A DNA stretch of 64,000 nt from positions 64,001 to 128,000 of the IMG/VR virus record IMGVR_UViG_3300032316_000329. One strand, given 5' to 3'. This DNA is from a virus. The position numbers and the translations under genes were made by a program. Positions within the stretch are counted from its first letter, which is position 1, and each line of letters opens with the position of its first letter. This document shows, in pieces, positions 3,377 to 32,561 of this stretch. A model generated the notes under the pieces. The model was not told the origin of the DNA. It made no database searches and saw only the letters and a list, made by a program, of their open reading frames with translations.

Positions 3377-4174
3377 ATGCCAATCACAACCGTTTCTCTA
3401 ACAAATACGTTTGACGAGTGGAGAATCAAAACTAACCAGACTATCGTTGCTTTAGATGACGACTCTACTGGTATTTTGAGAGGTAATACCACTCTTACCG
3501 GATCAATTATTCTTACCAACCCCAATAAGTATGGTAGTAATGTAACTCTTAACGTTTCTAGCGGTATGATTAAGGGCGACGGTGGATTACTGACAAATCT
3601 CACTTTCCAAGGTGTTAATACTATTCAGAATGTTGTTACAGTAATTTACAACACCTCAAATACAGTTTATAATTTAACAAATACCGCCTATAATACAGCA
3701 AACGCCGCATTTGATGTTGCCAATGCTGCTGCCACATCTACAAATGCGGCCTCTGGATTTTCGGTTGCTAATGCGGCATTTAATAAAGCCAATGCTGCTC
3801 TTGCTAACACTACAACCACTTATGTCGGTGATCTAACTGTTGTAGGTAAGGTAATTCATACCGGCCGTTATAGTCAGACAGTAACAGCAGTATCAGCGTC
3901 AGCAATTGACTGTTCGCAGGGTAATTACTTTACTAAAACTGCTTCTAGCGGACTAACCTGGACATTTACAAATGTTCCAGCAAGTGGTGCTTATGTTGCC
4001 GTTTTAGAACTAACAAATGGTGGCACCGGAACACAGACATGGCCAGCAGCAGTTAAGTGGCCAAGTGGTGTAGCACCTGTTCTAACAACTTCTGGTGTTG
4101 ATTTGCTAGTGTTCATCACCGATGATGGTGGGACAAACTGGCGTGGGTTACAGTCAATGAGGGATAGTAAGTAA
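3377..4174 (+). CDS. Tail fibre-like protein (N-terminal attachment motif, Asn/Ala shaft, C-terminal beta domain)
   Basis: TNTFDEWRIKTN start; ANAAF repeats; C-terminal IDCSQGNYF..TWP..VKWP.G.AP.LT..GVD...DGGTNW domain common in phage fibres. Confidence 0.7.
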   Translation: MPITTVSLTNTFDEWRIKTNQTIVALDDDSTGILRGNTTLTGSIILTNPNKYGSNVTLNVSSGMIKGDGGLLTNLTFQGVNTIQNVVTVIYNTSNTVYNLTNTAYNTANAAFDVANAAATSTNAASGFSVANAAFNKANAALANTTTTYVGDLTVVGKVIHTGRYSQTVTAVSASAIDCSQGNYFTKTASSGLTWTFTNVPASGAYVAVLELTNGGTGTQTWPAAVKWPSGVAPVLTTSGVDLLVFITDDGGTNWRGLQSMRDSK

Positions 4175-6276
4175 TGATTAATAATTGGTTATTAACAGGT
4201 GCTGATGTTGTTCCTGATCAATTTACTCTTACAGATATAACGAATGCATCGCTTAATACAACTTATATCACTACATTAACACCTGTAGGATATGATGGTT
4301 TTGCAGCATGGAGTATTGATTCAGGTCTTGCCAATACTACGGGTAATACAACATTAGGAACATCTGGACTGATAGGATCTGGACAATCACTTTTTATTCG
4401 TAAAACATCTAGTTCTAATTATAATACAACCGTTGATACTGTTTTATCTATTAATGGTATTTCTGATACCTGGTCAATAACCACAAGAGCAGCGGATACG
4501 GTACCGAATCCATTTACTTTTACAAATGTAACATCTGCCGAAAGATCAAATACTTATTCTTCTTCTGTTATTTTAACAGATTATGATTTTGCTTCTTGGA
4601 ATGTTACCGCAGTTGGTGGAGAAGCACAAGGCAGTAATACTGGAACAACTTGGTCTACATCTGGTACAATCTTCTCTGGAGAAACTTTTTATATAAGAGC
4701 AAATTCAGGATCTGCTTTCGGTAATACAGTTATTGCTACTGCTAATGTTGGTGGAATTTCAAACACTTTTACTGTTACCTGTAGAGACGCAGATATATCT
4801 CCTGTTTCTAATAGTGATATCTTTATTGGTGCTGCTATTTTTACAGAATATACCAGTAATACATTAACTATCACAGGATTAGAAGCAAATTTTCCCGTTA
4901 ATGTTAGTGTTAGCGGATCAACAACAGCGTCGAGTCCGTCTTTTTCTGTTGGAACAAGTTCGATTAGCGGAACTTATTTATCTTCTAATACCACAGTAAC
5001 AACAAGCGGAAGCGGAACATTTGTTATTTCCGTGAAGGGAACAACAGGTTCTTCTTTAAATACAAATTATTATACTTATTTAAATGTAGGATCAACCAAT
5101 AATGCTGTAACTTTTAATATACTAACAAGACAAGCAGATGAAACTCCTAGTCAGTTTAACTTTACTGACATTAATGATGCTGTTTTATCCACACAATATA
5201 CAACTTCTACGGTTGTGGTGTCTGGACTAGAACCTAATTATCCAATAACAATTTCAGCATCCGGTGGAACAATTGATGCCGGGACATCATCATTAAGTGG
5301 CACCTTTGCATCGTCTAAGACGGTTAATACTTCTGCTTCCGGAACATTAGTAATGGCAGCAAGAGTGACATCTAGTTCATTTTATCTAACAACAGTAAAT
5401 TGTACCGTTACAATAGGCGGTGTTTCTGATATATATTCTGTTACAACTGGCGCTGTTGGAGAAGATGTTTATACTGCTCCGGGCACTTATTCTTGGACTG
5501 CGCCAGCTAACGTCACTTCCGTATGTGTGGTATGTGTGGGAGGCGGAGGCGGCGGTGGCCGCAACCACCCCAGCGGCGGCATGTATCGTGGCGGCGGAGG
5601 CGGCGGGTTAGGTTATGTTAACAATGTTTCTGTAACTCCAGGATTGAGTTATACTGTAGTAGTTGGAAGTGGTGGTACTGGTTTGAGTTCCGGGGTTAAT
5701 GGATCATCTGGTGGAGAGTCCAGATTTGCTACAACATGTTATGGATACGGCGGCGGAGGCGGCACCGGTTGTGTAGGAACGGGATGCACCGCATCTGCTT
5801 CTTCGGGTGGTAGTTATAGTGGCAGCGGCGGAGGTACCGGAGGTAACTCTCCGCAGCCTGCGGGTTCAACGACGACCTGGCCCAGGACCGGTGGAGGCGG
5901 CGCCGGCGGTTATAGTGGTAACGGCGGTGGCGGCGGAGATTCTGGTTCGGAACGACCTGGAACAGCAGGCAGCGGCGGCGCAGGTGGTGGTGCCGGGGGC
6001 GGTGGAAATGTTACCGGCGGCGGCGGCGGCGTAGGATTATACGGACAAGGAGCAAATGGTGCCGGAGGGATTGACAACGCAGGCGGAGGCGGAGGATCAG
6101 GAGGCAGCAGCGGAGGTACCGGAGGTAACCTTGGATCTACGCCTGGTGGATCATATGGAGGCGGCGGCGGCGCAACAACTAATGGCGACGGTTTACAAGT
6201 TGGATCAAGTGGCGCCGGCGGCGCCGTTCGTATTATTTGGGGTCCAGGTCGTTCATTCCCCAATAATGCAACTTAA
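4174..6276 (+). CDS. Gly-rich adhesin/fibre tip with four N-terminal ~100-aa Ser/Thr-rich beta repeats
   Basis: Repeats beginning D.VP..FT.T (DVVPDQF, DTVPNPF, DISPV, DETPSQF); C-terminal PGTYSWTAP..V.VVCVGGGG..GGAGGAVRIIWG Gly-rich domain. Confidence 0.75.
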   Translation: MINNWLLTGADVVPDQFTLTDITNASLNTTYITTLTPVGYDGFAAWSIDSGLANTTGNTTLGTSGLIGSGQSLFIRKTSSSNYNTTVDTVLSINGISDTWSITTRAADTVPNPFTFTNVTSAERSNTYSSSVILTDYDFASWNVTAVGGEAQGSNTGTTWSTSGTIFSGETFYIRANSGSAFGNTVIATANVGGISNTFTVTCRDADISPVSNSDIFIGAAIFTEYTSNTLTITGLEANFPVNVSVSGSTTASSPSFSVGTSSISGTYLSSNTTVTTSGSGTFVISVKGTTGSSLNTNYYTYLNVGSTNNAVTFNILTRQADETPSQFNFTDINDAVLSTQYTTSTVVVSGLEPNYPITISASGGTIDAGTSSLSGTFASSKTVNTSASGTLVMAARVTSSSFYLTTVNCTVTIGGVSDIYSVTTGAVGEDVYTAPGTYSWTAPANVTSVCVVCVGGGGGGGRNHPSGGMYRGGGGGGLGYVNNVSVTPGLSYTVVVGSGGTGLSSGVNGSSGGESRFATTCYGYGGGGGTGCVGTGCTASASSGGSYSGSGGGTGGNSPQPAGSTTTWPRTGGGGAGGYSGNGGGGGDSGSERPGTAGSGGAGGGAGGGGNVTGGGGGVGLYGQGANGAGGIDNAGGGGGSGGSSGGTGGNLGSTPGGSYGGGGGATTNGDGLQVGSSGAGGAVRIIWGPGRSFPNNAT

Positions 6277-6285
6277 GGTAATAAA

Positions 6286-6474
6286 ATGAAGTATGATCTA
6301 GAATTTATTAATCCACTTGGTAATCCTGGTACTCATTATGCTTTTGAGGCAGAAACCATTGAAGAAGCTGAGACACTATCTCCGCATTGGTTATCTGCTT
6401 CAAGTCAATGGAGACCAGAACAATTTAAAATAGTTTCTGTTAAAAAATCAATTTATGAAGAAAATAAGGAATAA
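6286..6474 (+). CDS. Hypothetical protein
   Basis: 62 aa ORF with SD AAGG, tightly packed in the operon. Confidence 0.55.
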   Translation: MKYDLEFINPLGNPGTHYAFEAETIEEAETLSPHWLSASSQWRPEQFKIVSVKKSIYEENKE

Positions 6475-6476
6475 AA

Positions 6477-6926
6477 ATGGCTTATGTCAATACTAAAACA
6501 AAAAAGGCACTAACACCTTTTGAAGTTAGAGCAGAAAATCCGAACATTAGTTTTCCTAATGGACCGTGGGACGATAAACTTTTATCTTCATTAGGATATG
6601 CAGAATTGCGTTTTCCTGATGAACACCCTCATCCAGGTCTTTATCAGAAGTTGGTTGAAGGTGAACCAAAACTAATTGGCAATGAATGGTTTAGAACACT
6701 TGCCGTTATTGATCTAACAGACGATGAAAAAAAATTATTATTAATTAATAAATGGTTAGAAGTTCGCCAGAATAGAAATGATCTACTTTCTGCTTGTGAT
6801 TGGACTCAACTCGCAGATGCGCCAATTACTAATAAAGAAGCATGGGTAGAGTATCGCCAGTTACTAAGAGACGTTACCAAAGTTGATGATCCACATAATG
6901 TAGTTTGGCCACAACCACCAGTATAA
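6477..6926 (+). CDS. Phage tail (fibre) assembly chaperone
   Basis: R..RN.LL..CDWTQL.D...W..YRQ.LRD....P..V.WP.PP signature. Confidence 0.85.
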   Translation: MAYVNTKTKKALTPFEVRAENPNISFPNGPWDDKLLSSLGYAELRFPDEHPHPGLYQKLVEGEPKLIGNEWFRTLAVIDLTDDEKKLLLINKWLEVRQNRNDLLSACDWTQLADAPITNKEAWVEYRQLLRDVTKVDDPHNVVWPQPPV

Positions 6927-6938
6927 GAAAGATAACAA

Positions 6939-7874
6939 ATGGCAAGTTTAGATTTTCCCAGCAGCCCGACAAACGGTCAGCAATATACACTTAATGGTAT
7001 AACATATTATTACGATTCTACTGTCGGTGCGTGGCTAACATCTGTAGTGGCTACAACATTTGATATACCAACACTATTTTCTGTATCTAATGCCTCTTAT
7101 GGTACCGCCAATGCCGCTTTTGAATTTGCTAATGGTGTATCAACCAATACCACGGCAGCATTTGCCTTTGCTAACGGTGTTGCTGTAAACGCGGCCGCTG
7201 CCTTTGCCGCCGGTAATGCCGAGTTCGCTTTTAGTAATACGATCTATGCGGCCGTTAATAGTGCCTTTGGTGTCATTAATGCTGCCTACACAAGTTCTAA
7301 TGCTGACTATGTGCTTACTAATGCTGCTTTTACAGTTACTAATGCGGCATTCGGTGTAGCAAATAATGCCTATACCGCAACTAATGGTGCTGCGGCATTT
7401 GCCTTTGCTAACGGTGTTGCGACTAATACAACTGCGGCATTTGCTAAGGCCAATGCAGCATTAGCAAATACTACCACAACACTAAACGGAACATTAACAA
7501 CTACCGGTGGTATTACAGTTGAATCTGATCTATCTATTAAAAAGGTTTCAGAAACTACTGTAGCATTAGGTAATAGTGGAACCGCTATAACAATCAACAT
7601 TGGAACAGGAACAGTATTCACCTGCACCTTAACAGGAAGTTGTACCTTTACTCTTTCAAATGTTACATCATCAAAAGCAGCATCTTTTAGTCTAATATTA
7701 ACTAACGACGCAACAGCAGGAAGATCAGTTGCTTGGTCTGGTGGAACTTTTCGTTATCCCGGAGGTTCTGTTTCCAGAACAACAGGCGCAAATGCGATTG
7801 ATATCTGGACTGGATTTACTCCAGACGGTGGAACAACTTGGTATCTAAATATACCTATGAAAAACATTTCTTAA
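6939..7874 (+). CDS. Tail fibre-like protein
   Basis: N-terminal FPSSPTNGQ..Y.YDST.GAW motif; AFAFANGV repeats; C-terminal TPDGGTTWY domain paralogous to 3377-4174. Confidence 0.7.
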   Translation: MASLDFPSSPTNGQQYTLNGITYYYDSTVGAWLTSVVATTFDIPTLFSVSNASYGTANAAFEFANGVSTNTTAAFAFANGVAVNAAAAFAAGNAEFAFSNTIYAAVNSAFGVINAAYTSSNADYVLTNAAFTVTNAAFGVANNAYTATNGAAAFAFANGVATNTTAAFAKANAALANTTTTLNGTLTTTGGITVESDLSIKKVSETTVALGNSGTAITINIGTGTVFTCTLTGSCTFTLSNVTSSKAASFSLILTNDATAGRSVAWSGGTFRYPGGSVSRTTGANAIDIWTGFTPDGGTTWYLNIPMKNIS

Positions 7875-8107: not shown

Positions 8108-8689
8108 ATGGAATATATGTTGACACCATATAGTGATAAAATTGAATCTTTTGTTTACTGGGAAAATGCTTTTAACAAAGAGGAGTTAAACTATCTTCAA
8201 AATATTGCTGTGAAATCTCAACAAAATTCTTATGTCTCTGGAGGTGAAAACGGTATAATTAATGAAGATATTAGAAGATCAAAAGTTACTTGGTTACATA
8301 ACAATAAAGACTCTGAATGGTTATATCAAAGAATTGCTAATATTGTGTCTGAGTTGAACTCAAGGTTTTTTAGATTCAATCTGACTGGATTTGGTGAACC
8401 TTTTCAATTAACAAACTATGATAGTAGTTATCAAGGTACATATAATTGGCATCAAGATTTTGGTAGTAAAATAAGTAGGAAATTGTCTTGTGTTATGCAG
8501 TTAACAGATCCAAGTGAATATGAAGGAGGTAATCTAGAAATAATGACCTCTTCTACTTCTACAAAAATTAATAAATGTAGAGGTCTGATAACAATTTTTC
8601 CCTCTTGGACTTTACATAGAGTTTCTCCAGTTACGCAAGGTAGTAGACAATCTTTAGTTTCTTGGATATCGGGCCCGGAGTTTAAATAA
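8108..8689 (+). CDS. 2OG-Fe(II) oxygenase (PKHD/prolyl-hydroxylase-like)
   Basis: YNWHQD..RKLS..QL.DPSEYEGG.L..FPS...HRV.PVT.G.R.SLV.W: HxD..H..R facial triad. Confidence 0.9.
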   Translation: MEYMLTPYSDKIESFVYWENAFNKEELNYLQNIAVKSQQNSYVSGGENGIINEDIRRSKVTWLHNNKDSEWLYQRIANIVSELNSRFFRFNLTGFGEPFQLTNYDSSYQGTYNWHQDFGSKISRKLSCVMQLTDPSEYEGGNLEIMTSSTSTKINKCRGLITIFPSWTLHRVSPVTQGSRQSLVSWISGPEFK

Positions 8690-9282
8690 TGAGAACTGAA
8701 TTTAAAGAATTTTTTGGTATTTTTGATGATGTTTATCCTGAAAACTTTTGCGAACATTTGATAAATGAGTTTGAAAGAGTTCGGCAAGTTGGAGCAGGAA
8801 GCAACAGAATTAATTCAGAGGGCACTCTTCGCCATTATAAAGATGATTATCAGATATTTGATTTCAAATCGAGAGATTTGATAGATTTTGAACAGCAGAG
8901 ACCTGTGGATGTCTTTTTCAACGGACTTCAAAGTTGTTTTGAACGATATACCGAAAATTTTTCTACACTAAAGGACGTCAACATATATTGTGACACACTA
9001 AAAGCGCAAAAAACCGATCCCGGACAAGGGTATCATATTTGGCACGCCGAAAAGTCCTATAAAGAAATACAGAGAGTATTAGTTTATTGTTTATATTTGA
9101 ATAATCTTGAATCAGATGCCGGAGGCGAGACCGAGTTTTTATATCAAAGAATAAGATTCAAACCTATAAAAAACAGAATGTTAATTTGGCCAGCAGATTT
9201 TACTCATGTTCATAGAGGAAATGTTGTTCTAGGAAATGATTCAAAATATGTTATAACAGGATGGTTCCATTATGATAAATGA
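8689..9282 (+). CDS. 2OG-Fe(II) oxygenase (prolyl 4-hydroxylase-like)
   Basis: GYHIWHAE..R.L...LYLN...GGETEFLYQ..WPA.FTH.HRG....KY.ITGW. Confidence 0.9.
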   Translation: MRTEFKEFFGIFDDVYPENFCEHLINEFERVRQVGAGSNRINSEGTLRHYKDDYQIFDFKSRDLIDFEQQRPVDVFFNGLQSCFERYTENFSTLKDVNIYCDTLKAQKTDPGQGYHIWHAEKSYKEIQRVLVYCLYLNNLESDAGGETEFLYQRIRFKPIKNRMLIWPADFTHVHRGNVVLGNDSKYVITGWFHYDK

Positions 9283-9874
9283 ATATTTTAATTTTTTTAA
9301 ACAAAAAGGATATGTATTCATTCCGAATTTAATTGATGATCATTCTATAAAGATGGTATCTAAATATTTTGAGAACTGTTTAAAACAAAATCTATGGAAA
9401 TTAAAAAGCAACGATAATGATAAGGATTTGATAAGTTCATACAGTAGATATGCTGATCCTTTAGTAGAGATTATTTTGGAAAATTGTGTAGAAGATGTAA
9501 AGACTGTAACAGGTAAATCAGTAGTTCCAACATACTCATATTCAAGAATATATCTTAAAGGGGATGAATTAAAGAGACACACTGATAGACCTTCTTGCGA
9601 ATATTCAGTAACAGTTAATGTTGCTTCGGTAGGAGAAAAGTTGTCCCCTGTTTGGGTTAAGGCATTTAATGGTGAATCTAGAAAATATAATTTACAACCA
9701 GGTGATGCAATAATATATAAAGGTTGTGAGATAGAGCATTGGAGAGATCCTCTTACGGACACCGATATAAATGTTCAATTCATGTTACATTATGTTGATT
9801 TAAATGGACCTTATGCTGAATACAAGTGGGATAAAAGAGAATCCTTAGCTTTACCTAGTTCAGAAAGGAAATAA
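9272..9874 (+). CDS. 2OG-Fe(II) oxygenase
   Basis: PTYSYSRIY..GD.L.RH.DRPSCE.S.T..GDA.IY.GC...HWR...Q..LHYV. Confidence 0.85.
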   Translation: MINEYFNFFKQKGYVFIPNLIDDHSIKMVSKYFENCLKQNLWKLKSNDNDKDLISSYSRYADPLVEIILENCVEDVKTVTGKSVVPTYSYSRIYLKGDELKRHTDRPSCEYSVTVNVASVGEKLSPVWVKAFNGESRKYNLQPGDAIIYKGCEIEHWRDPLTDTDINVQFMLHYVDLNGPYAEYKWDKRESLALPSSERK

Positions 9875-9875
9875 T

Positions 9876-10817
9876 ATGTCTTTGATTTTTTCAAGGATTG
9901 GTAGACTTGGTGCAGGGTTAACGCCAGGTGGAACACAAACATTCAATTCAACAGGGACATTTACAATTCCTTCTGGAGTTACTAAAGTAAATGTTACTGG
10001 TTTAGGTGGAACAGGTAATCCTGGAAATCCAGGTAATCCAGGAACTCCCGGAGGAGGTGCTGGTGGGGGTGGAGGCGGCGGCGCAGGAGGCGCAGGTTCA
10101 CCATGGACGCCAGGCGGTACAGGTGGAGCCGGATACGGATCACCACAGCTGGCAGCGCCGCCCAGTTGGCCGGTAAATAATAGACAATGGAATGGACGCA
10201 GTGGAAGCTATTACTCTGCGCCCGCGGGTACTACCGGTACATCGGCCGATTGTGGACCTTCAGCTTGTAAGTACGGATCACCATTGGGATTATCCGGAAA
10301 TCCCGGCAGTGCTGGAATAGCGGGAAATCCATCTACAGCTTTTGGTTATAATTTTGCTGGAGGAAACTCAGGACCAGGGGGAACAGGCGGTTCGGGCGGA
10401 ACTACTGGACCTGGCGGGTATGGAGGAGGTGTAGGTCCATTAAATGTTGCTACTGCTGGTAATCCAGGTGGAGGTCCAGGGGCAGGAAATGGTGGCGCAG
10501 CTGGTGGGCCCCCTTCAACGCCAGGACAAAGTTTTGTTGGAAAAAACGGCAATCCGGGCACTTTATTTCAAAACTCAGGTGGAGGAGGAGGAGGCGGCGG
10601 CTTCAAGGCGGTAGGCTCACCGTTCACTCCCGACAATGGATCAGGTGGTGGAGGAGGAGGCGGCGGCCAATCTGGTAATCCAGGTAATTCAGGTGGGCCA
10701 GCTGGTCCTGTATCTCCATCTCAATTCAACTGTATTCCTGTCACCCCAGGTAGTCCTTATCCAATAGTAGTCGGATCTTCAGGTGGTCAAGTTACGATTT
10801 CGTGGAATCCACAATAA
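9876..10817 (+). CDS. Gly/Pro-rich adhesin with collagen-like Gly-X-Pro triplets
   Basis: GTFTIPSGVTKVNV.G.GG start; GNPGNPGNPGTPG, GNPG and GGPG runs; ends VTPG..YPIVVG..GGQVTISW. Confidence 0.75.
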   Translation: MSLIFSRIGRLGAGLTPGGTQTFNSTGTFTIPSGVTKVNVTGLGGTGNPGNPGNPGTPGGGAGGGGGGGAGGAGSPWTPGGTGGAGYGSPQLAAPPSWPVNNRQWNGRSGSYYSAPAGTTGTSADCGPSACKYGSPLGLSGNPGSAGIAGNPSTAFGYNFAGGNSGPGGTGGSGGTTGPGGYGGGVGPLNVATAGNPGGGPGAGNGGAAGGPPSTPGQSFVGKNGNPGTLFQNSGGGGGGGGFKAVGSPFTPDNGSGGGGGGGGQSGNPGNSGGPAGPVSPSQFNCIPVTPGSPYPIVVGSSGGQVTISWNPQ

Positions 10818-10831
10818 TTTGAGGTTATAAA

Positions 10832-11293
10832 ATGAAACTAGAAAATATGTCTAATTTAGAACTTAATGAAGAACTAGATAAACATGAGAAGTATATGTCT
10901 CTTTGTTCTTCAAAAGAAAGAATAAACAGAGCAAGGTCGTTTTGTGTTGGTACTGCTTTTGGAAACACGACCGAGATCATTATGAGAGCAGATGATAAAT
11001 ATATATGGGCAACTTTCAATCAACAAGAGATAGTTGAAATTATACATCAACTTGCTTCTAATATTGGATGTAACATATCTTTACAGCCAAGAGACGATTT
11101 TGCTTCTAGCGAGAGATGGAAAAATAGTAAAGAGAATACACCCTTAAATACTATATTTAATTCCTACTCTACTGTTTTTCATGGTTTACCAGGTTCTCCA
11201 GGATATAGTTTATACAACGAAGCGGGAACAAATAATCCTAGAGAAGTGCCGGGTGGATTAGGCGGCGGCCAAAGATTACCGGAAGAAGAATAA
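10832..11293 (+). CDS. Hypothetical protein
   Basis: 153 aa ORF with SD GAGG. Confidence 0.65.
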   Translation: MKLENMSNLELNEELDKHEKYMSLCSSKERINRARSFCVGTAFGNTTEIIMRADDKYIWATFNQQEIVEIIHQLASNIGCNISLQPRDDFASSERWKNSKENTPLNTIFNSYSTVFHGLPGSPGYSLYNEAGTNNPREVPGGLGGGQRLPEEE

Positions 11294-11307
11294 AATAGGA
11301 GAATAAA

Positions 11308-11715: not shown

Positions 11716-11734
11716 AAATTAAAGGTTTTTTATT

Positions 11735-12975: not shown

Positions 12976-12978
12976 CAA

Positions 12979-21237: not shown

Positions 21238-21248
21238 CGGAATAAGAT

Positions 21249-23089: not shown

Positions 23090-23098
23090 GGTCGTATA

Positions 23099-24819: not shown

Positions 24820-25971
24820 ATGCCAACTTTTTATCAGGTTAACGGTGTATCGTTTGATGATCTGTTTGTAAGAAATGATTCATTCACAGAAGGTGGGTTG
24901 TGGACCTGGGGAAATAATGGTCTGGGTGAATTAGGTGATAACTCCAGAACCCATAGATCATCTCCAGTCCAAACCGTATCTGCTGGTACAAATTGGAAAC
25001 AGGTTGCTGGTGGTGGTAATCACACCGCTGCCATTAAAACTGATGGAACATTATGGTTATGGGGTAGTAATTTTTTTGGCCGATTAGGTGACAATACACA
25101 AACCGATAGATCCTCACCAGTTCAAACTGTATCTGCTGGTACAAATTGGAAACAGGTTGCTTGTGGTGGTACTCATACCGCTGCCATTAAGACTGACGGA
25201 ACCCTATGGACATGGGGACGTAATTATAATGGCCGATTAGGTGACAATACAACAACCGATACAACCTCACCAGTCCAAACCGTATCTGCTGGTACAAATT
25301 GGAAACAGGTTGCTTGTGGTGGTAATCACACCGCTGCCATTAAGACTGATGGAACCCTTTGGACCTGGGGACGTAATACTAACGGTCAACTAGGTGATAA
25401 CTCTTTAACCCATAGATCCTCACCAGTTCAAACTGTATCTGGAGGAACCAATTGGAAACAAGTTGCTGGTGGCGATAGTCATACTGCTGCCGTTAAAACT
25501 GATGGAACATTATGGATGTGGGGAGGCAATAGTTATGGTCAACTAGGTGATAACTCTTTAACCCATAGATCCTCACCAGTTCAAACTGTATCTGCTGGTA
25601 CAAATTGGAAGTTTGTTGCCAGTGGATATTATGCACATACTGCTGCCATTAAGACTGATGGAACCCTATGGACATGGGGACGTAATAATTTCGGTCAACT
25701 AGGTGATAACTCTTTAACCCATAGATCCTCACCAGTTCAAACTGTATCTGGTGGTGCCAATTGGAAACAAGTTTCTTGTGGTCGTTTTTACACAACTACC
25801 ATTAAAACTGATGGAACCCTGTGGACATGGGGACGTAATAGTTATGGTCAACTAGGTGATAATACAACAACCGGTAGATCATCACCAGTCCAAACCGTAT
25901 CTGCTGGTACAAATTGGAAACTAGTTGCTTGTGGCACTTATTTTACCGTCTCCATCCGAGATCAGTGGTAA
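24820..25971 (+). CDS. RCC1/BLIP-II-like 7-repeat beta-propeller protein C
   Basis: Seven ~51-aa repeats as in protein A. Confidence 0.9.
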   Translation: MPTFYQVNGVSFDDLFVRNDSFTEGGLWTWGNNGLGELGDNSRTHRSSPVQTVSAGTNWKQVAGGGNHTAAIKTDGTLWLWGSNFFGRLGDNTQTDRSSPVQTVSAGTNWKQVACGGTHTAAIKTDGTLWTWGRNYNGRLGDNTTTDTTSPVQTVSAGTNWKQVACGGNHTAAIKTDGTLWTWGRNTNGQLGDNSLTHRSSPVQTVSGGTNWKQVAGGDSHTAAVKTDGTLWMWGGNSYGQLGDNSLTHRSSPVQTVSAGTNWKFVASGYYAHTAAIKTDGTLWTWGRNNFGQLGDNSLTHRSSPVQTVSGGANWKQVSCGRFYTTTIKTDGTLWTWGRNSYGQLGDNTTTGRSSPVQTVSAGTNWKLVACGTYFTVSIRDQW

Positions 25972-25980
25972 TTTACAAGA

Positions 25981-25987
25981 CTAAATA
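25981..25987 (+). promoter_or_regulatory. Late promoter heading the modification-enzyme operon
   Basis: Intergenic CTAAATA. Confidence 0.6.
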
Positions 25988-26020
25988 CCAAAGTTAGACA
26001 ATTATTTTATGAGGGTTGTT

Positions 26021-26566
26021 ATGATAAAGTTGAACCTTGGTTCTGGTTACAAACATATTGATGGTTATCTAAATATTGATTCGGATCCAAAGTGTAATCC
26101 AGATCACTTACTAAACCTTGAAACCGACAGACTTCCCTTTGATGATAACACGGTAGACGAAGTTCTCTGCCACCATATTCTAGAACACATTGGTGATGGT
26201 TTCATTCATTTAATGAAAGAAATCTACCGAGTTTGTAAAAACGGTGCTATACTAGACATAGCAGTTCCACATCCCAGGCACGATGTTTTCCTCATAGACC
26301 CCACTCATAAACGGCCAATCTACTCTGATACTATTGATATGTTCTCTAAAAAAAGGAACCAAAAAACTATTGAAAATAAAGGTATGGAAACAACTCTTGG
26401 TATAATGAATGACATTGACATAGAAGTATTTGCCACTGACTATGTTCTTGATGAATACTATCAAAAACTCTTTCAAACATTACCAAACGAACAATGTGAT
26501 ATAATTGCTCGGTCTTATAATAATGTTATTATTGAAATCCTAATCAAGGCAATGGTGAATAAGTGA
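26021..26566 (+). CDS. SAM-dependent methyltransferase (type 11-like)
   Basis: KLNLGSG..GYLNID..LPFDDN.VDE....HILEH..KEIYRV.K.G...I.VP..DPTH; ATG after GAGG. Confidence 0.85.
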   Translation: MIKLNLGSGYKHIDGYLNIDSDPKCNPDHLLNLETDRLPFDDNTVDEVLCHHILEHIGDGFIHLMKEIYRVCKNGAILDIAVPHPRHDVFLIDPTHKRPIYSDTIDMFSKKRNQKTIENKGMETTLGIMNDIDIEVFATDYVLDEYYQKLFQTLPNEQCDIIARSYNNVIIEILIKAMVNK

Positions 26567-27885
26567 CAGTAGAATATCCAAACTGTGATCCTCTCGGAAC
26601 TGCCAAGTTTTTTATCAATTTAAAACAACCTGAAAAGGCCAAAGTTTCCCTTGATCAAGTAAAACCATATTGTCAGACAGTTCAACAGTTAGATGCTATT
26701 GGCAAACTCTATGCTGATTGTAGAGAATGGAATGATTCTCTTGAAATTGCCAAGAAGATTCATTCCCTACTTCCAAACAATCAATCCAAATATGATATTA
26801 GAACAAATATTGTTCGTTCTTTACTCAATTTAAACAATCCAGAAGAAGCACTAATTTATATCAATATGAATGAAAAGGTGAATCCAAACGATCATCCTAA
26901 TCGTATGGATAAAGCAATGGCTTTATTTCTACTAAACAAAAAAATAGAAGCCGAAGCAATACTGCGACAAATATTAGAAGAACCACATAATGATGATATT
27001 GACACAAGAGTAAAATTTAATCTAGGAACCTATGACATTAGAAATGGTAATTTTAAAGATGGTATCAAAAATTTTCTTCTTCACGGTAGAAAGTTAAATA
27101 TATGGGAGTCATATACTCTTCCGAAAAATAATTATTGGAAAGGCGATATACAACCTGGTAAAACTATTCTGATGTGTCACGATGGTGGTATTGGTGATGA
27201 AATAATCAATATAAGGTTTCAGAAACACATTAAAAAACTTGGTATGAATCCTATTTGGTTTACAGCAAGAAAAGACCTGGCTAAAGTCTTTGAAAGAAAT
27301 GGATTTACTGTAACAACAAATCCTAATGATTATAAATCTGATTGGTTGTGGTATTATTCAATGACTTCGCCAGTATTGCTTGATGTTGATGAGAATGACT
27401 TGTGGGATGGTCCTTATATAGAACCAATCAGAAAAGCAGAGAAACTTTCTGGTAAATTAAAGATCGGCCTAAAATGTGTTGGTAATCCAAAATATGATCA
27501 GGATCTAAACAGAACAGTTCCCTATAAAGAAGTTCTTGATATTTTACCAAAAGATGCGACGGTCTATTCATTTCATATTGACGAAGATATTGATGATCCT
27601 AGATTGATATCTCTTAAAGATAAGATCAAAACTTGGGACGATACGCTTGACTTTATAGATCAAATGGACTATATGATATCTAGTTGTACCTCAACAGCAC
27701 ACGCGGCATCTGCTATGGGTAAAAAGACTTTTGTTATGGTTCCTATCCTTAATTATTACCTTTGGGCAAAACCAGAAAACCACTCAAAGTGGTATTCGGA
27801 AAATACCAGAATAATCAGACAAACAACATATAAAAATTGGTATGATCCGATCAAAGAGTTGAAAGAACTCCTCAATGGTCAATAG
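26563..27885 (+). CDS. TPR-containing GT-B glycosyltransferase (GT9/heptosyltransferase-like; FlmG/FlbA-type architecture)
   Basis: Helical TPR-like N-half; W.G...GKTIL...GGIGD.I..R and D..IS.CTS.AH.A.AMGK.T.V...W..SKWY...R..RQ...W motifs. Confidence 0.8.
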   Translation: MTVEYPNCDPLGTAKFFINLKQPEKAKVSLDQVKPYCQTVQQLDAIGKLYADCREWNDSLEIAKKIHSLLPNNQSKYDIRTNIVRSLLNLNNPEEALIYINMNEKVNPNDHPNRMDKAMALFLLNKKIEAEAILRQILEEPHNDDIDTRVKFNLGTYDIRNGNFKDGIKNFLLHGRKLNIWESYTLPKNNYWKGDIQPGKTILMCHDGGIGDEIINIRFQKHIKKLGMNPIWFTARKDLAKVFERNGFTVTTNPNDYKSDWLWYYSMTSPVLLDVDENDLWDGPYIEPIRKAEKLSGKLKIGLKCVGNPKYDQDLNRTVPYKEVLDILPKDATVYSFHIDEDIDDPRLISLKDKIKTWDDTLDFIDQMDYMISSCTSTAHAASAMGKKTFVMVPILNYYLWAKPENHSKWYSENTRIIRQTTYKNWYDPIKELKELLNGQ

Positions 27886-28240
27886 AATTGTCAATTCGGT
27901 CAATATTAATTTAACTTCCATATCAACGAATGAACCGATTTCGGATGTTCCTTGTGGTTCGTGTAATATGTGTTGTAAGTTGTTATCACCTTTTCTCACA
28001 ACCGAAGAGATTGCTTCTGGTAAATATCCATTAAGTATAATTAACCCTTCTAATACAAACGAAGGGCCAACGGTGGTTTTGTTTAGAAATATAGAGGGTG
28101 GTTGTGGTATGTTAATAGATAATAAGTGTTCTATCTATGATGATAGACCTATTGCTTGTCGGCAATTTGATTGTCGCAGAGGTCATCATCCAAAAACAAA
28201 TATTGTGGCTAAAGAAAAGTTTGGAATTGATATACAATGA
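27875..28240 (+). CDS. YkgJ-family Cys-cluster (Zn/Fe-chelating) protein
   Basis: PC..C..CC....C..L....CSIY..RP..CR.FDC. Confidence 0.8.
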   Translation: MVNRIVNSVNINLTSISTNEPISDVPCGSCNMCCKLLSPFLTTEEIASGKYPLSIINPSNTNEGPTVVLFRNIEGGCGMLIDNKCSIYDDRPIACRQFDCRRGHHPKTNIVAKEKFGIDIQ

Positions 28241-29067
28241 AACACGGAAAAACAGCTGTCTATACAATCCTCAAAAACGAAAAAAAATATATTGAAAAAT
28301 GGTTATACTATGCCAATCCTTTTGACTATAAGGTTCTTCTTGACACGGGATCAACCGATGGTTCTTGGGAACTATTACAAGAATATGCCTCAAAAGATCC
28401 TAAACTAATCATTGAACAAAAAACCTTCGATCCATGGCGGTTTGATACAGCAAGAAACTATAATCTCAACATGGTACCAGAAGAAGTCGTCTGGTGCCTC
28501 TCTCCTGACTTGGACGAGTATTATTCCATCAATACACACGATGAAATGGAAGTTATTATATCTGCTGTTCCTGATATTACTTGTATTGCTTCCGATAGAT
28601 TAGATATTTATTCCCGTGTTGTTCGTGTCGGGCCTCCAAATCTACAAGCAACTAACAAGATTCACAGAAGGCACGATTATATCTGGAAAGAAAGAATCTA
28701 CGAACACATCTCCTGGAAACATGGTGGGTATGAGAAAGAATTATATTCTGATGATATCTTTCTGGTTCATGATCAAGACTTTAAAAAGAAAGAGAGATCA
28801 GAACTCTATATCAGACTAATGGAAGAGGAATGGGCCGAGAATCCTAAAAACTCATGGAATAATTGGTTTCTTCTTTATCATTACTTTAAGTCACAACAAC
28901 TGGAAAAGTATATTCCTGTTGCTTGTAATTACTTGCTATTTCACACAAAAAAACAAGATAAGAACTATGAGGATGTTACTAATACTCTAAAAGGAATTTT
29001 AGCGAGAGAGAAGATATCCGATCAACATAAACATTTAATTGTTGAAGCATTGAAGGTTGCTAGATGA
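28237..29067 (+). CDS. Glycosyltransferase family 2
   Basis: VY.I.KNE...DTGSTDG..PWRFD.ARN..L...CLS.DLDE (DxD). Confidence 0.85.
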   Translation: MKHGKTAVYTILKNEKKYIEKWLYYANPFDYKVLLDTGSTDGSWELLQEYASKDPKLIIEQKTFDPWRFDTARNYNLNMVPEEVVWCLSPDLDEYYSINTHDEMEVIISAVPDITCIASDRLDIYSRVVRVGPPNLQATNKIHRRHDYIWKERIYEHISWKHGGYEKELYSDDIFLVHDQDFKKKERSELYIRLMEEEWAENPKNSWNNWFLLYHYFKSQQLEKYIPVACNYLLFHTKKQDKNYEDVTNTLKGILAREKISDQHKHLIVEALKVAR

Positions 29068-29852
29068 AAACATTTCACTTTCTATCAGGATTACCTAGAA
29101 CAGGGTCAACGGTTCTTGAATCATTACTCAATCAAAATCCGCAAGTATATGTTACACCAACATCACCTCTACTACATCTATTAAATAAAAATCAAGAAGA
29201 GTTTCATCAATGTCCCGAGGTTATTGCTAATCCCGTCTCAGATATGCTTACTAATGTTTCTCGTGGTATGATAGAAGGTTGCTGGGAACACAGACCAGAA
29301 CCTATCATCATTGACAAGCATCGCGGTTGGGGTAAGAATATGCCGGCGACTACGATTGTTTTTGATAAAGAAATTAAAATGGTTGCTACTATCCGAGACA
29401 TACCTTCTATAATGGCCAGTTGGTTAACTCTTATTAGAAATCAACCAAACAACTTTATCAAAAGAACTGTTATTGAAAAAGGTTTTGAAGCAACAGAAGA
29501 AAATATGATGGCAGAAATGTGGTTTGGTCATGTTCTAGATTGTGTTGAGTCGGTTGCTATGGCAAGAAAGACAGCATCTAATAGAATGTTAGAAATACGG
29601 TATGATGACTTTATTAAAGATTCAAAACAACAGATTTCTAAAATTGAATCTTTTCTTGAACTACCTTCTTTTGAATATGATTTTGAAAACATACAAAATA
29701 ACAACATAAACAATGATCACGAAGCATTTGGATTCATTGATATGCATAAGGTCAGACCAAAGGTGGAAAAGATTGCTAAACATCCAAAAGATGTATTAGG
29801 TGATAGTCTTTACAATAGGTTTGTTGATCTTGAAAGGCAGTATTTGAGATGA
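29064..29852 (+). CDS. Sulfotransferase
   Basis: FLSGLPRTGST.L..LLNQNP PAPS-binding loop; IDK.R.W; IRD. Confidence 0.85.
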   Translation: MKTFHFLSGLPRTGSTVLESLLNQNPQVYVTPTSPLLHLLNKNQEEFHQCPEVIANPVSDMLTNVSRGMIEGCWEHRPEPIIIDKHRGWGKNMPATTIVFDKEIKMVATIRDIPSIMASWLTLIRNQPNNFIKRTVIEKGFEATEENMMAEMWFGHVLDCVESVAMARKTASNRMLEIRYDDFIKDSKQQISKIESFLELPSFEYDFENIQNNNINNDHEAFGFIDMHKVRPKVEKIAKHPKDVLGDSLYNRFVDLERQYLR

Positions 29853-30274
29853 AAAAGATTTTAATTATGGGACTACCCGGTTCAGGCAAGACGACATTTG
29901 CCGAAGAGTTGAGAAAACAACTATTAGCAAAGAGTAGAACTGCGGCCTGGTTTAATGCCGATGTTATTCGTAAAATGCATAACGATTGGGACTTTTCACC
30001 AGAAGGTCGTATAAGACAGGCTAATAGAATGAGAATATTGGCCGATGGTATGATGACTGATTATGTTATCTGCGATTTTGTGGCACCAACAGAAGAAATC
30101 AGAACACAATTTAAGGCAGACTTTACAATTTGGATGGACACCGAAACAAAATCAGATTATGAAGATACTGATAAATTGTTTGAGCGTCCAACCAAATGGG
30201 ATTATATTGTTAAGATGAAAGATGTTCCTAATACAGTTAGTCCATGCGTTGAACAAATTCTGAAACTTGGGTAA
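29849..30274 (+). CDS. cysC: Adenylylsulfate (APS) kinase-like protein, short
   Basis: GLPGSGKTT P-loop; NAD.IR....DFS.EGR.RQ..R; ICDFVAP...R; FE.P. Confidence 0.75.
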   Translation: MKKILIMGLPGSGKTTFAEELRKQLLAKSRTAAWFNADVIRKMHNDWDFSPEGRIRQANRMRILADGMMTDYVICDFVAPTEEIRTQFKADFTIWMDTETKSDYEDTDKLFERPTKWDYIVKMKDVPNTVSPCVEQILKLG

Positions 30275-31049
30275 ACTTATGGTCAAATACTTTTCTCGCA
30301 CAACTGTATGTCTGATACTTGCCTTTAATAATCTCAGGCATATCAATGAACTTAACCGGAACATTATACTTATCAGCAACAATCACTGCCACATCTAAGA
30401 ATGAAATAGGATGGGAACAACCTAAATCAAAGATACCTTCTTTGGCATTTGTTGTAATAATCTTAATGATATCACCAACCCAAACAAAGTCACGATAGGT
30501 ATTTTCCGACCCTTTGAAAATCTTAATCACTCCATCATTCTTAGCCTGCTCCGAGAAACGATAGACTGGTGAGGTACAAAAGTCCGATTTCTTTTCATCG
30601 GCACCATATACATTGAAATAACGATAACCTGTAATCGGTGCGGTAAAAGATGACCTATTTTCCATAACCCACAAATCAACGGTATACTTAGAAACAGCAT
30701 AGTAGTTTAGTGGATTATAATCATATGTTTTATTAACCGCCATAGACTGGCCATATACAGAACCAGAAGATGCATAGTGAACAGGAATCTTATGCTTAAT
30801 GGCCTTCTCAAAAATCTCAACCGATGACTGGACATTCCATCGCATTACCTTCAATACATCTAGTTCGGTTGTATTAGAGATAGCACCTTGGTGATAAATC
30901 ATTGTAATCTTATCCCACGGTACCTGTTTTGCCAATTCAATTGGGTCACCATCTACGGCATCAAAACCATATACCTTATTACCTTGTTGTTCTAAATGCT
31001 TTACAAGGTTTCTACCAATAAATCCTTTATGTCCTGTAACTAAAATCAT
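30237..31049 (-). CDS. hldD: ADP-L-glycero-D-manno-heptose 6-epimerase
   Basis: VTG.KGFIG; HQGAISNTTE; YASSGSVYG; PLNYYAVSK (YxxxK); RYFNVYG; RDFVWV.D. Confidence 0.85.
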   Translation of the reverse strand: MILVTGHKGFIGRNLVKHLEQQGNKVYGFDAVDGDPIELAKQVPWDKITMIYHQGAISNTTELDVLKVMRWNVQSSVEIFEKAIKHKIPVHYASSGSVYGQSMAVNKTYDYNPLNYYAVSKYTVDLWVMENRSSFTAPITGYRYFNVYGADEKKSDFCTSPVYRFSEQAKNDGVIKIFKGSENTYRDFVWVGDIIKIITTNAKEGIFDLGCSHPISFLDVAVIVADKYNVPVKFIDMPEIIKGKYQTYSCARKVFDHKFTQVSEFVQRMD

Positions 31050-31396
31050 TGTCCGTCTCCTGGTATAACTCTATAACTATCACTATCATAATGTGTGGTT
31101 GATACTTCTATAAGAACCGAATTGTCCTCTAGAGCCTCAATCTGATGTGGTCGACCTGGTTCATTTACCCAAGTATCACCTTCTTTAAGTATAATATTAT
31201 GTTTAGAGGCATCTTTTGTTTCTATCCAGTGGATTTTAAACATACCGCTTTGAACATAGAATGTTTCATGTTTCTTCATATGGAAATGCATTGACCCTTT
31301 TGAACCGGCCTTGTCGTGTATAAGGAGTTTGCCACAATACATTTCATTATTGGCAAAAATGACCTCTCTACCCCATTTCTTTTCAACAGTGTCCAT
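31046..31396 (-). CDS. Cupin (sugar-phosphate isomerase-like)
   Basis: K.WG.E....YCGKLL..SMHFH..K.ETFYV..G..P...H......EVST. Confidence 0.75.
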   Translation of the reverse strand: MDTVEKKWGREVIFANNEMYCGKLLIHDKAGSKGSMHFHMKKHETFYVQSGMFKIHWIETKDASKHNIILKEGDTWVNEPGRPHQIEALEDNSVLIEVSTTHYDSDSYRVIPGDGQ

Positions 31397-32561
31397 TCAA
31401 ATGCTCCAATATATTCGTGGTAGAAAATCCTTCAACATACGGTATAATAGTTGTAACAACTGGCCGTCCATTAACATCATATGTTTTAGAAACATAGTCA
31501 CCACCTTTTGTAATGATATCTGGATTAACTTTCTTGATCAACTCGTATGGTGAATCCTCTTCAAATATAATTACCTCGTCCACACAAGAAAGGGACTCCA
31601 ATATTAATTTTCGGTCCTCTTGTTTGTTAAACGGTCTATCGTTACCTTTGCGCCTTCTCACAGAATCATCCGAGTTCAAACCAACAATAAGATAATCACC
31701 AAGTTCTTTTGACTTTTGTAGATATTCAATATGTCCTTTGTGAATAACATCAAAGCAACCGTTGGTGAATACAATTTTCTTTTCTACGGTTCTTATATCA
31801 TCCTCAGTTAGTGTATAGGTTCCAAAGTGACTAACCGATAATGCTGCTAGTTTATTCGCCTTGACACAGGCCTTATGTATATCTTCTCCTTTGGCCAGAT
31901 AATATGTCATAGCGGCAATAAACACATCACCAGCACCCGTAACATCGGCAACCTCTTTATCAATACCTTCTAATTTGATTATCCGACCTTCCTCTACAAT
32001 AATAGGTCCTTTGCTACCACGAGTAATAACAAAAGTTCCAACATTGTAGAACTTTCTGGTATCTTGATAACTATCACCTACCATAGCAAACTTATGGTAT
32101 TCTTCCTCATTCATCTTGATAATATCGGCACCTTCATAGTTGACCAGAGATTTCTTTGGATCAACTATTACAATCTTACCCTGTTGTTTTAGTTTATGAA
32201 TTAGTTGCTGACTTTTAGATAAGACACCTTTATTATAATCGGAAAGAATGACATATTTGGTTTCTTCAGGAAATTCTATTTGAGAGATATCAGCGGTGCT
32301 AATCTTATCTTCATCCACACGGAACATAATGTGACCGTTACATACATATCTTTTCTTGACCGAATAATCAAGGGCATCAGAATAGTAATCTACACATACA
32401 CCAAGGTTTATTAGATTGTTATTAACATTAGAGGCGCCGCCGGCACGACTTTCTTCTTTAATGATATCAAAGATAGGAATGGGAGATTCTGGAGAGAACC
32501 GGTTCATTTTTCCATAAATATAGATATCCGATATATGATCACCAATCAATCCGATTTTCAT
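31383..32561 (-). CDS. hldE: Bifunctional heptose-7-phosphate kinase / heptose-1-phosphate adenylyltransferase
   Basis: PfkB domain (SPE.PIP, GGA.NV, SDY.KG, VDPK, DVTGAGD) fused to VFTNGCFD.IH.GH..GLNSD.SV..KG..RP..KGGDY; ATG 32561 after GGAG. Confidence 0.9.
   Translation of the reverse strand: MKIGLIGDHISDIYIYGKMNRFSPESPIPIFDIIKEESRAGGASNVNNNLINLGVCVDYYSDALDYSVKKRYVCNGHIMFRVDEDKISTADISQIEFPEETKYVILSDYNKGVLSKSQQLIHKLKQQGKIVIVDPKKSLVNYEGADIIKMNEEEYHKFAMVGDSYQDTRKFYNVGTFVITRGSKGPIIVEEGRIIKLEGIDKEVADVTGAGDVFIAAMTYYLAKGEDIHKACVKANKLAALSVSHFGTYTLTEDDIRTVEKKIVFTNGCFDVIHKGHIEYLQKSKELGDYLIVGLNSDDSVRRRKGNDRPFNKQEDRKLILESLSCVDEVIIFEEDSPYELIKKVNPDIITKGGDYVSKTYDVNGRPVVTTIIPYVEGFSTTNILEHLNGHC

Follow-up and report, generated by a model that had tools for sequence, protein, structure and literature searches.

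The stretch of DNA analysed here, the 64,000 nucleotides from positions 64,001 to 128,000 of the IMG/VR virus record IMGVR_UViG_3300032316_000329 (the window), is the middle 64 kb of a viral record of 165,114 bp that is estimated to be 99% complete. It comes from a large freshwater phage of the T4-like myovirus type and holds the genes of a gp13-like adaptor, gp14, gp15, terminase, portal, prohead protease and scaffold. Identity of gp15 to the nearest isolates is about 29-44%, and a megablast search with positions 26000-33000 against 50,697 phage records gave zero matches; by these comparisons, the phage is related to isolates only distantly. The subject of this report is the island of fibre genes that ends at the neck genes, and above all three genes for RCC1 propeller proteins and the adjacent operon, whose second gene encodes a tetratricopeptide-repeat (TPR) protein with a glycosyltransferase (GT) domain of the GT9, or heptosyltransferase, type (hereafter TPR-GT9).

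An earlier note, made from the letters of the window alone, had listed a fibre island, a late operon, an hldD-cupin-hldE group and gp13 at the end, and all of these items are present (Table 1). The fibre-type genes recognized with Pfam and PHROGs encode tail-fibre chaperones, Gly_rich_2, Mtd_N, Peptidase_S74 and DUF4376 proteins and the three RCC1 propellers. Judging from gene content in relatives, the region comprises at least two conserved cassettes, A (8108-12591) and B (20233-30274), which travel separately. Cassette B holds the S74 fibre, the three RCC1 propellers, DUF4376, the fifth of five 2-oxoglutarate (2OG)-Fe(II) oxygenases and the enzyme operon (26009-30274).

The T4 late promoter, TATAAATA, has 3 sites against 7.4 expected; being unenriched, it was dropped as the late promoter of this phage, and CTAAATA was put in its place. 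CTAAATA occurs in 18 copies on the + strand and none on the - strand, and is found 18-64 nt upstream of the portal, prohead protease and scaffold genes. Two further copies, at 20205 and 25981, each lie 28 nt upstream of a gene, the S74 fibre gene and the methyltransferase gene, respectively. Because they share this motif with the structural genes, both the enzyme operon and the block of RCC1 genes have the look of late genes, and late co-expression of the transferase operon with the structural genes is plausible. The late-promoter operon described in the earlier note thus keeps a motif upstream of its methyltransferase gene, but not the T4 sequence.

RCC1 propellers and the TPR-GT9 protein

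The 21 blades of the three RCC1 proteins (21249-25971) are built on an almost invariant 51-residue frame (TDGTLWTWG.N..G.LGDN...T.RSSPVQTVS.GTNWK.VA.G...TAAIKT), and most of the variation falls at three loop sites, in the manner of a diversified binding surface. No signal peptide or transmembrane segment was found in any enzyme or RCC1 protein of the phage. The oxygenase encoded among the propellers (24313-24819) gave a fold model with a pLDDT of 89. Nearly all PDB matches listed for this model are Fe(II)/2OG oxygenases with Z-scores of 11-12, one of them being the viral collagen prolyl hydroxylase 5c5t. The triad of the protein is H81-x-E83...H152 in an alignment of 14 homologues, with H81 changed to Leu in two distant ones. 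A paralogous relationship to the oxygenase of 11735-12367 was also considered, but hhalign aligned only a 22-residue C-terminal motif (probability 7%), and the fold search decided the assignment instead.

Homologues of TPR-GT9 number 595, mostly near 58-60% identity and without an annotated catalytic domain, and the Pfam TPR matches of the protein are weak. A model based on 35 sequences (pLDDT 90) has ten TPR-type helices (residues 12-176) followed by a two-lobed Rossmann domain. The top Foldseek matches of the whole chain were SPY (SPINDLY), XcOGT and human OGT, with TM-scores of 0.3-0.4; TPR plus GT-B is an architecture shared with OGT, SPY and FlmG, not a homologous family. When residues 194-440 were compared by VIA-align, the Z-scores were 16.1 for 3tov, 16.1 for TibC, 15.8 for WaaF and 15.2 for WaaC, the root-mean-square deviations for 3tov, 4rap, 1psw and 2h1f being 3.0-3.5 Å over 220-236 aligned residues, and the next unrelated GT-B after these GT9 enzymes had a Z-score of 11.3. 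In the ESM Atlas, 28 of 30 matches were GT9 (PF01075) clusters. The modelled structure thus joins TPR helices to a GT-B enzyme, with ADP-heptose transferases, TibC included, as the closest folds, and the TPR-linked glycosyltransferase of the earlier note is borne out in both its arm and its catalytic domain.

In relatives found with a profile (E <1e-90), PF01075 scores 54-59 bits, its cut-off being 22, and a profile of the catalytic domain detected 33,071 cluster representatives at E 1e-3. The best matches of this profile are bacterial proteins (from Oscillatoriales and SAR86, for example) that have 1.3-3.1 thousand residues and contain 3-6 TPR-plus-GT9 modules, and PF01075 was above its cut-off in three of the giant multi-module proteins scanned. 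One giant protein of this kind is fused to an FkbM methyltransferase. The motif G-x-G-D-E of TPR-GT9, at what we take to be the place of the catalytic Asp of WaaC (Asp13), and a dozen other positions are invariant down to 32% identity, so the enzyme is probably active.

Linkage in phages and in Bdellovibrionaceae

Starting from TPR-GT9, an RCC1 gene was found within 10 kb in 42 of 46 viral loci, and at least three of the four loci without one (numbers L002, L011 and L037 in our collection) hold less than 1 kb upstream of the TPR gene. Starting from RCC1, TPR-GT9 was found in 55 of 69 loci; most of the others are contigs that end too early. The common order is S74 fibre, RCC1, DUF4376, RCC1, (oxygenase), RCC1, methyltransferase, TPR-GT9, YkgJ, (GT2), sulfotransferase, kinase, (hldD-cupin-hldE) and gp13, and the pairing of RCC1 with TPR-GT9 persists through inversions and insertions (L024, L063). 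Collapsing the loci at 80% identity left 37 lineages, in which the partners of TPR-GT9 were RCC1 (36), DUF4376 (30), methyltransferase (28), sulfotransferase (28), S74 fibre (26, in each case upstream of the RCC1 genes), oxygenase (17), kinase (15), YkgJ (14) and GT2 (6). The earlier note had chosen linkage of the transferase genes to fibre loci in relatives as its refuting test, and RCC1 accompanies the transferase in all but one of the lineages. Its statement that these are not stand-alone metabolic genes likewise agrees with the linkage of the transferase operon to fibre-region genes in relatives.

Among the 50,697 phage records, TPR-GT9 exists in only four (two S-SRM01 records, BUCT-ZZ01 and a marine single-cell virus), and these are exactly the four with the best RCC1 matches. 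In S-SRM01 and BUCT-ZZ01, the TPR-GT9 and RCC1 genes are neighbours and come after a tail-fibre gene; the RCC1 domain of BUCT-ZZ01 is inside a 700-aa protein encoded directly after that gene. The paper on S-SRM01 contains no mention of these genes and no virion proteomics (PMC8557907), and no paper tying RCC1 to GT9 was found in the literature on phages and Bdellovibrio. A contig of 135,617 bp that was binned with an Acidimicrobiaceae metagenome-assembled genome (CAYVOK010000005.1; L200) carries an epimerase, a methyltransferase, two TPR-GT9, a sulfotransferase, the small oxygenase and a GT2 gene with 27-51% identity to the window, and is apparently of phage origin, having been put into a bacterial bin.

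When species-representative genomes were scanned with an alignment of the close TPR-GT9 family, nothing was found, whereas a scan with a more divergent alignment found homologues mainly in Bdellovibrionaceae and Oligoflexia. Among 61 Bdellovibrionaceae genomes sampled, the GT9 homologue is present in 13 and RCC1 genes in 36. The two are within about 7 kb of each other in seven of the 13, against a rough chance expectation of about 3% per genome, and the RCC1 genes beside the GT9 homologue are the most phage-like of the family (56% identity). In the chromosome of B. bacteriovorus Bd16, a secreted protein, the GT9-like protein, a methyltransferase homologue, two RCC1 proteins (about 1,080 residues) and an Ig-like lipoprotein are encoded in this order, with housekeeping genes around them. 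Another locus (L232) consists of RCC1, kinase, sulfotransferase, TPR-GT9, two methyltransferases, a gap and RCC1, which, by homology, is the whole enzyme set of the phage. The kinase homologue of this locus (L232 3043-3756; 237 aa) differs from the phage kinase in that its N-terminus is a hydrophobic, membrane-like stretch.

The N-termini of the bacterial RCC1 proteins have twin-arginine motifs (SRRAFL, TRRGFL and SRRKFL), and no export signal was found in the bacterial GT9, methyltransferase and sulfotransferase homologues. Twin-arginine translocation (Tat) exports folded proteins. Since the propellers would leave by Tat and the enzymes are signal-less, the two could meet only in the cytoplasm before export, and by analogy with TibC and its autotransporter this would be the logic of a substrate relationship. 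Because of the linkage of TPR-GT9 with RCC1 in phages and Bdellovibrionaceae, the three RCC1 propellers of the window are likely substrates of the enzyme kit.

Other genes of the region

Table 1. Features of the fibre-to-neck region of the window, in order of position
Feature	Positions	Strand	Basis or remark
Variable fibre genes: 3377-4174, Gly-rich 4174-6276, chaperone 6477-6926, 6939-7874	3377-7874	+	Pfam/PHROG tail-fibre matches
2OG-Fe(II) oxygenase 1	8108-8689	+	PF13640
2OG-Fe(II) oxygenase 2	8689-9282	+	PF13640
2OG-Fe(II) oxygenase 3	9272-9874	+	no Pfam match; HTD...H motif; prolyl-4-hydroxylase/PF13640 clusters in ESM Atlas
Gly/Pro-rich protein (33% Gly, 12% Pro); GNPGNPGNPGTPGG repeats = X-Pro-Gly triplets	9876-10817	+	composition
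Small protein	10832-11293	+	syntenic with oxygenases in L117-L126
Phage_tail_APC fibre chaperone	11308-11715	+	PF16778
2OG-Fe(II) oxygenase 4	11735-12367	+	PF13759
75-aa protein	12364-12591	+	syntenic with oxygenases in L117-L126
Variable fibre genes: 13251-14687, 15222-15884, Mtd_N fibre 15884-18499, Gly-rich 18448-19476, small open reading frames (ORFs)	12631-20033	+	Pfam/PHROGs
Short fibre, Peptidase_S74 intramolecular-chaperone C-terminus	20233-21237	+	PF13884; many tail-fibre PHROGs; CTAAATA at 20205
RCC1 propeller 1, seven-bladed	21249-22406	+	PF25390/PF00415
DUF4376 fibre-chaperone-like protein	22424-23089	+	between RCC1 genes
RCC1 propeller 2, seven-bladed	23099-24316	+	PF25390/PF00415
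Fifth 2OG-Fe(II) oxygenase	24313-24819	+	fold model; no Pfam match
RCC1 propeller 3, seven-bladed	24820-25971	+	PF25390/PF00415
Class I S-adenosylmethionine methyltransferase, first gene after CTAAATA at 25981	26009-26566	+	PF08241 (Methyltransf_11)
TPR-GT9: about 180 residues of TPR helices plus compact GT-B domain of GT9 (heptosyltransferase) type	26563-27885	+	model, fold, Atlas
YkgJ-type CxxCxxCC metal-binding protein	27875-28240	+	PF03692
GT2 glycosyltransferase	28237-29067	+	PF13704/PF00535; phrog_13126
PAPS-type sulfotransferase (PAPS, 3'-phosphoadenosine 5'-phosphosulfate)	29064-29852	+	PF00685/PF13469
Short P-loop kinase, APS-kinase-like, 141 aa (APS, adenosine 5'-phosphosulfate)	29849-30274	+	PF01583 at 43 bits
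HldD-like epimerase, 270 aa (vs about 310)	30237-31049	-	best match TIGR02197, 199 bits vs cut-off 274.6
WbuC-like cupin	31046-31396	-	NCBIfam best match, below cut-off
HldE-like kinase/adenylyltransferase	31383-32561	-	PfkB + cytidylyltransferase domains; probable start Met18 of listed ORF
gp13-like neck/adaptor, right island border	32628-33377	+	phrog_211; gp14 and gp15 next

The sulfotransferase of the operon scores 54.8 bits against Pfam cut-offs of 22 and 27, and its 5'-phosphosulfate-binding loop GLPRTGST and 3'-phosphate-binding residues R110...S119 are conserved in 58 homologues. Alignment of the kinase encoded next to it with the APS kinases 2gks and 2yvu covers GLPGSGKTT, NADVIR and DFSPEGRIRQ; 25 homologues keep the P-loop, the D..R and the FS..R motif, and the DFS..GR.RQ motif aligns with the APS-binding region of solved APS kinases. 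The kinase and sulfotransferase genes are adjoining both in phages and in the Bdellovibrionaceae locus L232, and the kinase is a putative APS-kinase-like enzyme that would supply PAPS to the sulfotransferase. Models of ATP sulfurylase and of CysD-type (PAPS_reduct) genes found neither in the whole 165,114-bp record, so ATP sulfurylase must come from the host. A possible role of the GT2 enzyme is glycan extension. The YkgJ-type cysteines are kept in 23 homologues; the idea that this protein is a FliB-type lysine methylase was dropped, as it had no NCBIfam match at E 0.01.

The HldE-like protein of the opposite strand matches NF008454 at E 2e-84, with 284 bits against a cut-off of 521 (domain II, 166.9 against 181.5), and the N-terminal third of its kinase domain is divergent. 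No CTAAATA was found upstream of the hld trio. A sigma-70-like site, itself weak, lies upstream of hldE at 32612-32584, and is only a weak lead, because the number of such sites in the region 19800-33500 (54, with 48.5 expected) is not above chance. Model searches for gmhA (SIS_2) and a HAD-type gmhB found neither in the whole record; gmhA, gmhB and ATP sulfurylase, which the earlier note had reported as missing from the window, are thus not found across the rest of the genome either. The same trio is seen at the same place in L002-L004, L009, L033 and L034. However, hldD adjoins the module in only nine of the 37 lineages and hldE in six (the trio genes range over 5-9 of 37), so that the heptose genes do not hold the place of an integral part of the pathway that the earlier note gave them, and by this distribution the trio is an accessory add-on, rare in relatives.

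The small cupin regularly accompanies the heptose genes of phages (31046-31396 here, 8841-9272 in L197 and 8438-8794 in L198), and in the phages P-TIM68 and P-SSM2 it is annotated as "cysteine dioxygenase" and lies beside gmhA. It may be a nucleotide-heptose epimerase that gives a modified heptose. Its candidacy as a replacement of GmhA was rejected, since P-SSM2 and P-TIM68 hold both genes side by side.

In cassette A, homologues of the oxygenases at 8108 and 9272 are found together in 60 of 80 related viral loci, and in at least seven related loci, the place downstream of the oxygenases is taken by an orthologue of the Gly-rich protein with 30-37% Gly and conserved ends. The cassette recurs as a unit of its own in about ten other viral loci; in L117-L126, the small protein, the fibre chaperone, the fourth oxygenase and the 75-aa protein are all syntenic with the other oxygenases. 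Its four oxygenases pair with a GNP-repeat protein, the Gly/Pro-rich protein of Table 1, and with a fibre chaperone, which suggests prolyl hydroxylation of this protein as a candidate oxygenase substrate within a separate, late-expressed unit. All five 2OG oxygenases claimed for the region are accounted for, three by Pfam and two by motif and Atlas or by fold. The fibre genes of 3377-7874 have almost no matches in 195 related loci, and those of 12631-20033 are sporadic in relatives only.

Three observations concern the window outside the island. The 763-aa protein encoded right after gp15 (35322-37613) combines a T4 gp9/10-like N-terminus with a Peptidase_S74 C-terminus, and is a second S74-type fibre. 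The portal gene is split into ORFs of 131 aa (42197-42592; Portal_T4 positions 2-72) and 446 aa (42677-44017), separated by a gap of 84 nt, which could be due to a frameshift, an intervening element or an assembly error. A full-length phage FtsH-like protease (FtsH_ext, AAA, AAA_lid_3 and Peptidase_M41) is encoded at 57286-59079, 30 nt downstream of CTAAATA.

A candidate decoration kit and its alternatives

Like the phage protein, TibC and AAH are cytoplasmic GT9-like GT-B enzymes, and they use ADP-heptose on a repetitive adhesin before its export, TibC heptosylating adhesins in this manner (PMC4358343). TibC is the joint top structural match (Z 16.1), and the RCC1 substrate proposed here, with 21 near-identical blades, is equally repetitive. 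TibC differs, however, in having no TPR arm, in its iron-finger, in forming dodecamers and in its beta-helical autotransporter substrates; no sequence-level similarity was found between TibC and the phage protein, whose domain is about 100 residues shorter, and no autotransporter gene was found in the window. FlmG, OGT and SPINDLY also combine an N-terminal TPR substrate arm with a C-terminal GT-B domain, and the TPR domain of FlmG binds its flagellin substrates (PMC7591256), but their catalytic domains belong to GT41 or to others and use UDP-GlcNAc, GDP-fucose or CMP-pseudaminic acid, and the phage domain fits GT9 better. WaaC and WaaF share the fold (Z 15.2-15.8) and an N-terminal G-D motif; they differ in acting on Kdo2-lipid A, in lacking a TPR domain and in lying in waa operons, and their motif D-T-G-x-x-H reads S-C-T-S-x-A-H in TPR-GT9. 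ADP-heptose would probably be the donor of TPR-GT9 in this phage, where, as in few relatives, HldE and HldD homologues are encoded beside the operon.

Virus-encoded glycosylation, carried out by other enzyme families, is known from the chloroviruses (major capsid protein) and mimivirus (fibrils), and to our knowledge no case of virus glycosylation involves TPR-GT9, RCC1 propellers or sulfation by a dedicated PAPS kinase. Mycobacteriophages are alike in that their own transferases, encoded beside structural genes, glycosylate their own particle, though the enzyme families are different and the targets are the capsid and tail tube (Freeman et al. 2023, PMC10527164). The "LPS gene" (lipopolysaccharide) clusters of the T4-like cyanophages P-SSM2, S-CAM1 and P-TIM68 (PMC1079782) share the heptose kinase/nucleotidyltransferase, epimerase and cupin at 31-38% identity, and that of P-SSM2 is also situated between tail-fibre genes, together with a 2OG oxygenase, which is suggestive, but not decisive. 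These clusters are different from that of the window in having separate kinase and transferase genes, as well as gmhA and a carbamoyltransferase gene, and no TPR-GT9 or RCC1 genes were found in these three phages.

With middling confidence, we regard the locus as a kit by which the phage decorates its RCC1 propeller adhesins. A module for ADP-heptose supply would be an optional part of it, and the oxygenase/GNP-repeat cassette nearby is separate. We infer the substrate, the donor, the order of the steps and the presence of the propellers in the virion as follows. In each cassette, putative virion surface proteins would be genetically tied to their own modifying enzymes and expressed late. The RCC1 propellers would be made in the cytoplasm, where the TPR arm of TPR-GT9 would bind them and its GT9-type domain attach a sugar, in this phage probably heptose from ADP-heptose; the oxygenase of 24313-24819 may hydroxylate a residue before the sugar is attached. 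The mark would then be extended by the GT2 enzyme, methylated by the methyltransferase and sulfated by the sulfotransferase, for which the APS-kinase-like protein would make PAPS from host APS. Once decorated, the propellers would be built into the virion together with the S74 fibre, with chaperone-like help from DUF4376, and serve in host recognition. The genes hldE-cupin-hldD on the opposite strand may act as an optional booster or modifier of donor supply, with GmhA and GmhB coming from the host. This scheme keeps only part of the "one pathway" that the earlier note drew over 29 kb: the enzymes do form a unit tied to surface-protein genes, but the two cassettes travel separately in relatives, and in place of fibres in general the conserved partners are the RCC1 propellers and the S74 fibre.

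Several points weigh against a kit of this kind. TPR-GT9 itself has no match to PF01075 at E 0.01, PDB sequence searches with the protein and its family profile gave nothing relevant, and its similarity to GT9, seen in a modelled structure and in relatives, is structural and transitive. GT9 enzymes classically act on lipid A-Kdo, so the acceptor may instead be a lipid or polysaccharide. The kinase scores 32.7 bits with TIGR00455 (cut-off 138.7) and 37.6 with NF004041 (cut-off 127), only its N-terminal 90-100 residues align with APS-kinase models, and it has 141 aa instead of about 180-200; being short and below the family cut-offs, it is labelled "APS-kinase-like" here rather than CysC. A full-length HldE was found in one of ten large TPR-GT9 records and none in S-SRM01, and in cyanobacteria, one host group of the relatives, LPS is often without heptose. 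Synteny within a shared T4-like backbone is partly inherited rather than selected, and hypervariable islands of this kind gather accessory genes of all sorts. The place of the propellers in the virion, moreover, is suggested only by their position in the late block, by the interleaved DUF4376 and S74 genes and by a distant precedent, an RCC1 protein of phage GAP32 that was identified as a virion protein by mass spectrometry (PMC5259590).

The main rival, especially for the hld trio, is remodelling of the host surface, in which auxiliary metabolic genes would alter the LPS core, capsule or S-layer and, for example, block superinfection or the adsorption of progeny. This is the long-standing reading of such genes and was proposed for the P-SSM2 clusters (Sullivan et al. 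2005, PMC1079782). HldE, HldD and GT9 are classic functions of the LPS inner core, heptose genes occur in many cyanophages together with gmhA and a carbamoyltransferase, and the trio is on the opposite strand with a weak host-type promoter, as would be expected of an early metabolic gene. For the trio alone, this reading may hold. The transferase operon, however, has the late motif rather than an early one, and transferases that act on proteins typically have a TPR arm. In phages of very different hosts, including Synechococcus, and in Bdellovibrionaceae chromosomes, RCC1 is accompanied by TPR-GT9, methyltransferase, sulfotransferase and kinase, so a self-contained substrate fits better than a host-specific glycan. 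The earlier note had offered LPS remodelling as its alternative; with the same enzyme set beside Tat-exported RCC1 in Bdellovibrionaceae chromosomes, it loses ground, and for the locus as a whole we consider it improbable, though it deserves more weight than the readings that follow.

The propellers could also be modified without being part of the virion, as soluble late proteins (decoys, lectins or effectors) that are released at lysis or stay intracellular. The phage RCC1 proteins are almost bare propellers, with N-termini of 28-45 residues and no recognizable fibre-attachment domain, their bacterial homologues are exported proteins and not appendage subunits, and PHROGs places RCC1 families under nucleotide metabolism, with weak tail matches only. 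However, the genes are part of the block of late structural genes, where they are flanked by the S74 fibre gene and the neck genes and interleaved with the DUF4376 gene, and both the 700-aa protein of BUCT-ZZ01 and the virion protein of GAP32 point to the particle; we rate a non-virion role as somewhat less probable even than host remodelling. Least of all do we expect that there is no functional unit, that is, that independent morons have collected in a hyperplastic fibre-to-neck island in an order inherited from a T4-like ancestor. The accessory load of such islands, the many flanking genes that differ between relatives and the coming and going of GT2, YkgJ and hld genes agree with it, but RCC1 and TPR-GT9 stay together in nearly all lineages, down to 32% identity and through rearrangements, their distributions in the phage records are identical, and their adjacency in the bacterial genomes is far above the chance expectation given above. 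We therefore regard it as very improbable.

So, returning to the decoration kit, the sugar islands of aquatic T4-like phages, which have been read for twenty years as tools for the host surface, may include loci such as this one, which suggests self-decoration instead. RCC1 and TPR-GT9 would be a substrate-enzyme pair that is abundant in freshwater viromes, with 595 homologues of TPR-GT9 and 33,071 clusters of its catalytic domain, all uncharacterized, and with cultured, tractable carriers in S-SRM01, BUCT-ZZ01 (Synechococcus elongatus PCC 7942) and B. bacteriovorus. A bolder proposal, which we put forward only tentatively and consider rather doubtful at present, is that RCC1 and TPR-GT9 with methyltransferase, sulfotransferase and PAPS kinase constitute an undescribed decoration system of T4-like phages and Bdellovibrionaceae, in which each blade of the hypervariable propeller adhesins would receive a sulfated, methylated (heptose-based) glycan in the cytoplasm, ahead of virion assembly in the phages and of Tat export in the bacteria. 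If this is true, no sulfated glycoprotein of a phage particle would have been known before it, and a toolkit for prey or host recognition would be common to two kinds of bacterial predator, linking phage biology with prey recognition in Bdellovibrio. In nature, adhesins coated with glycan and sulfate could influence the host range, the stability of the particles and resistance to grazing or enzymes.

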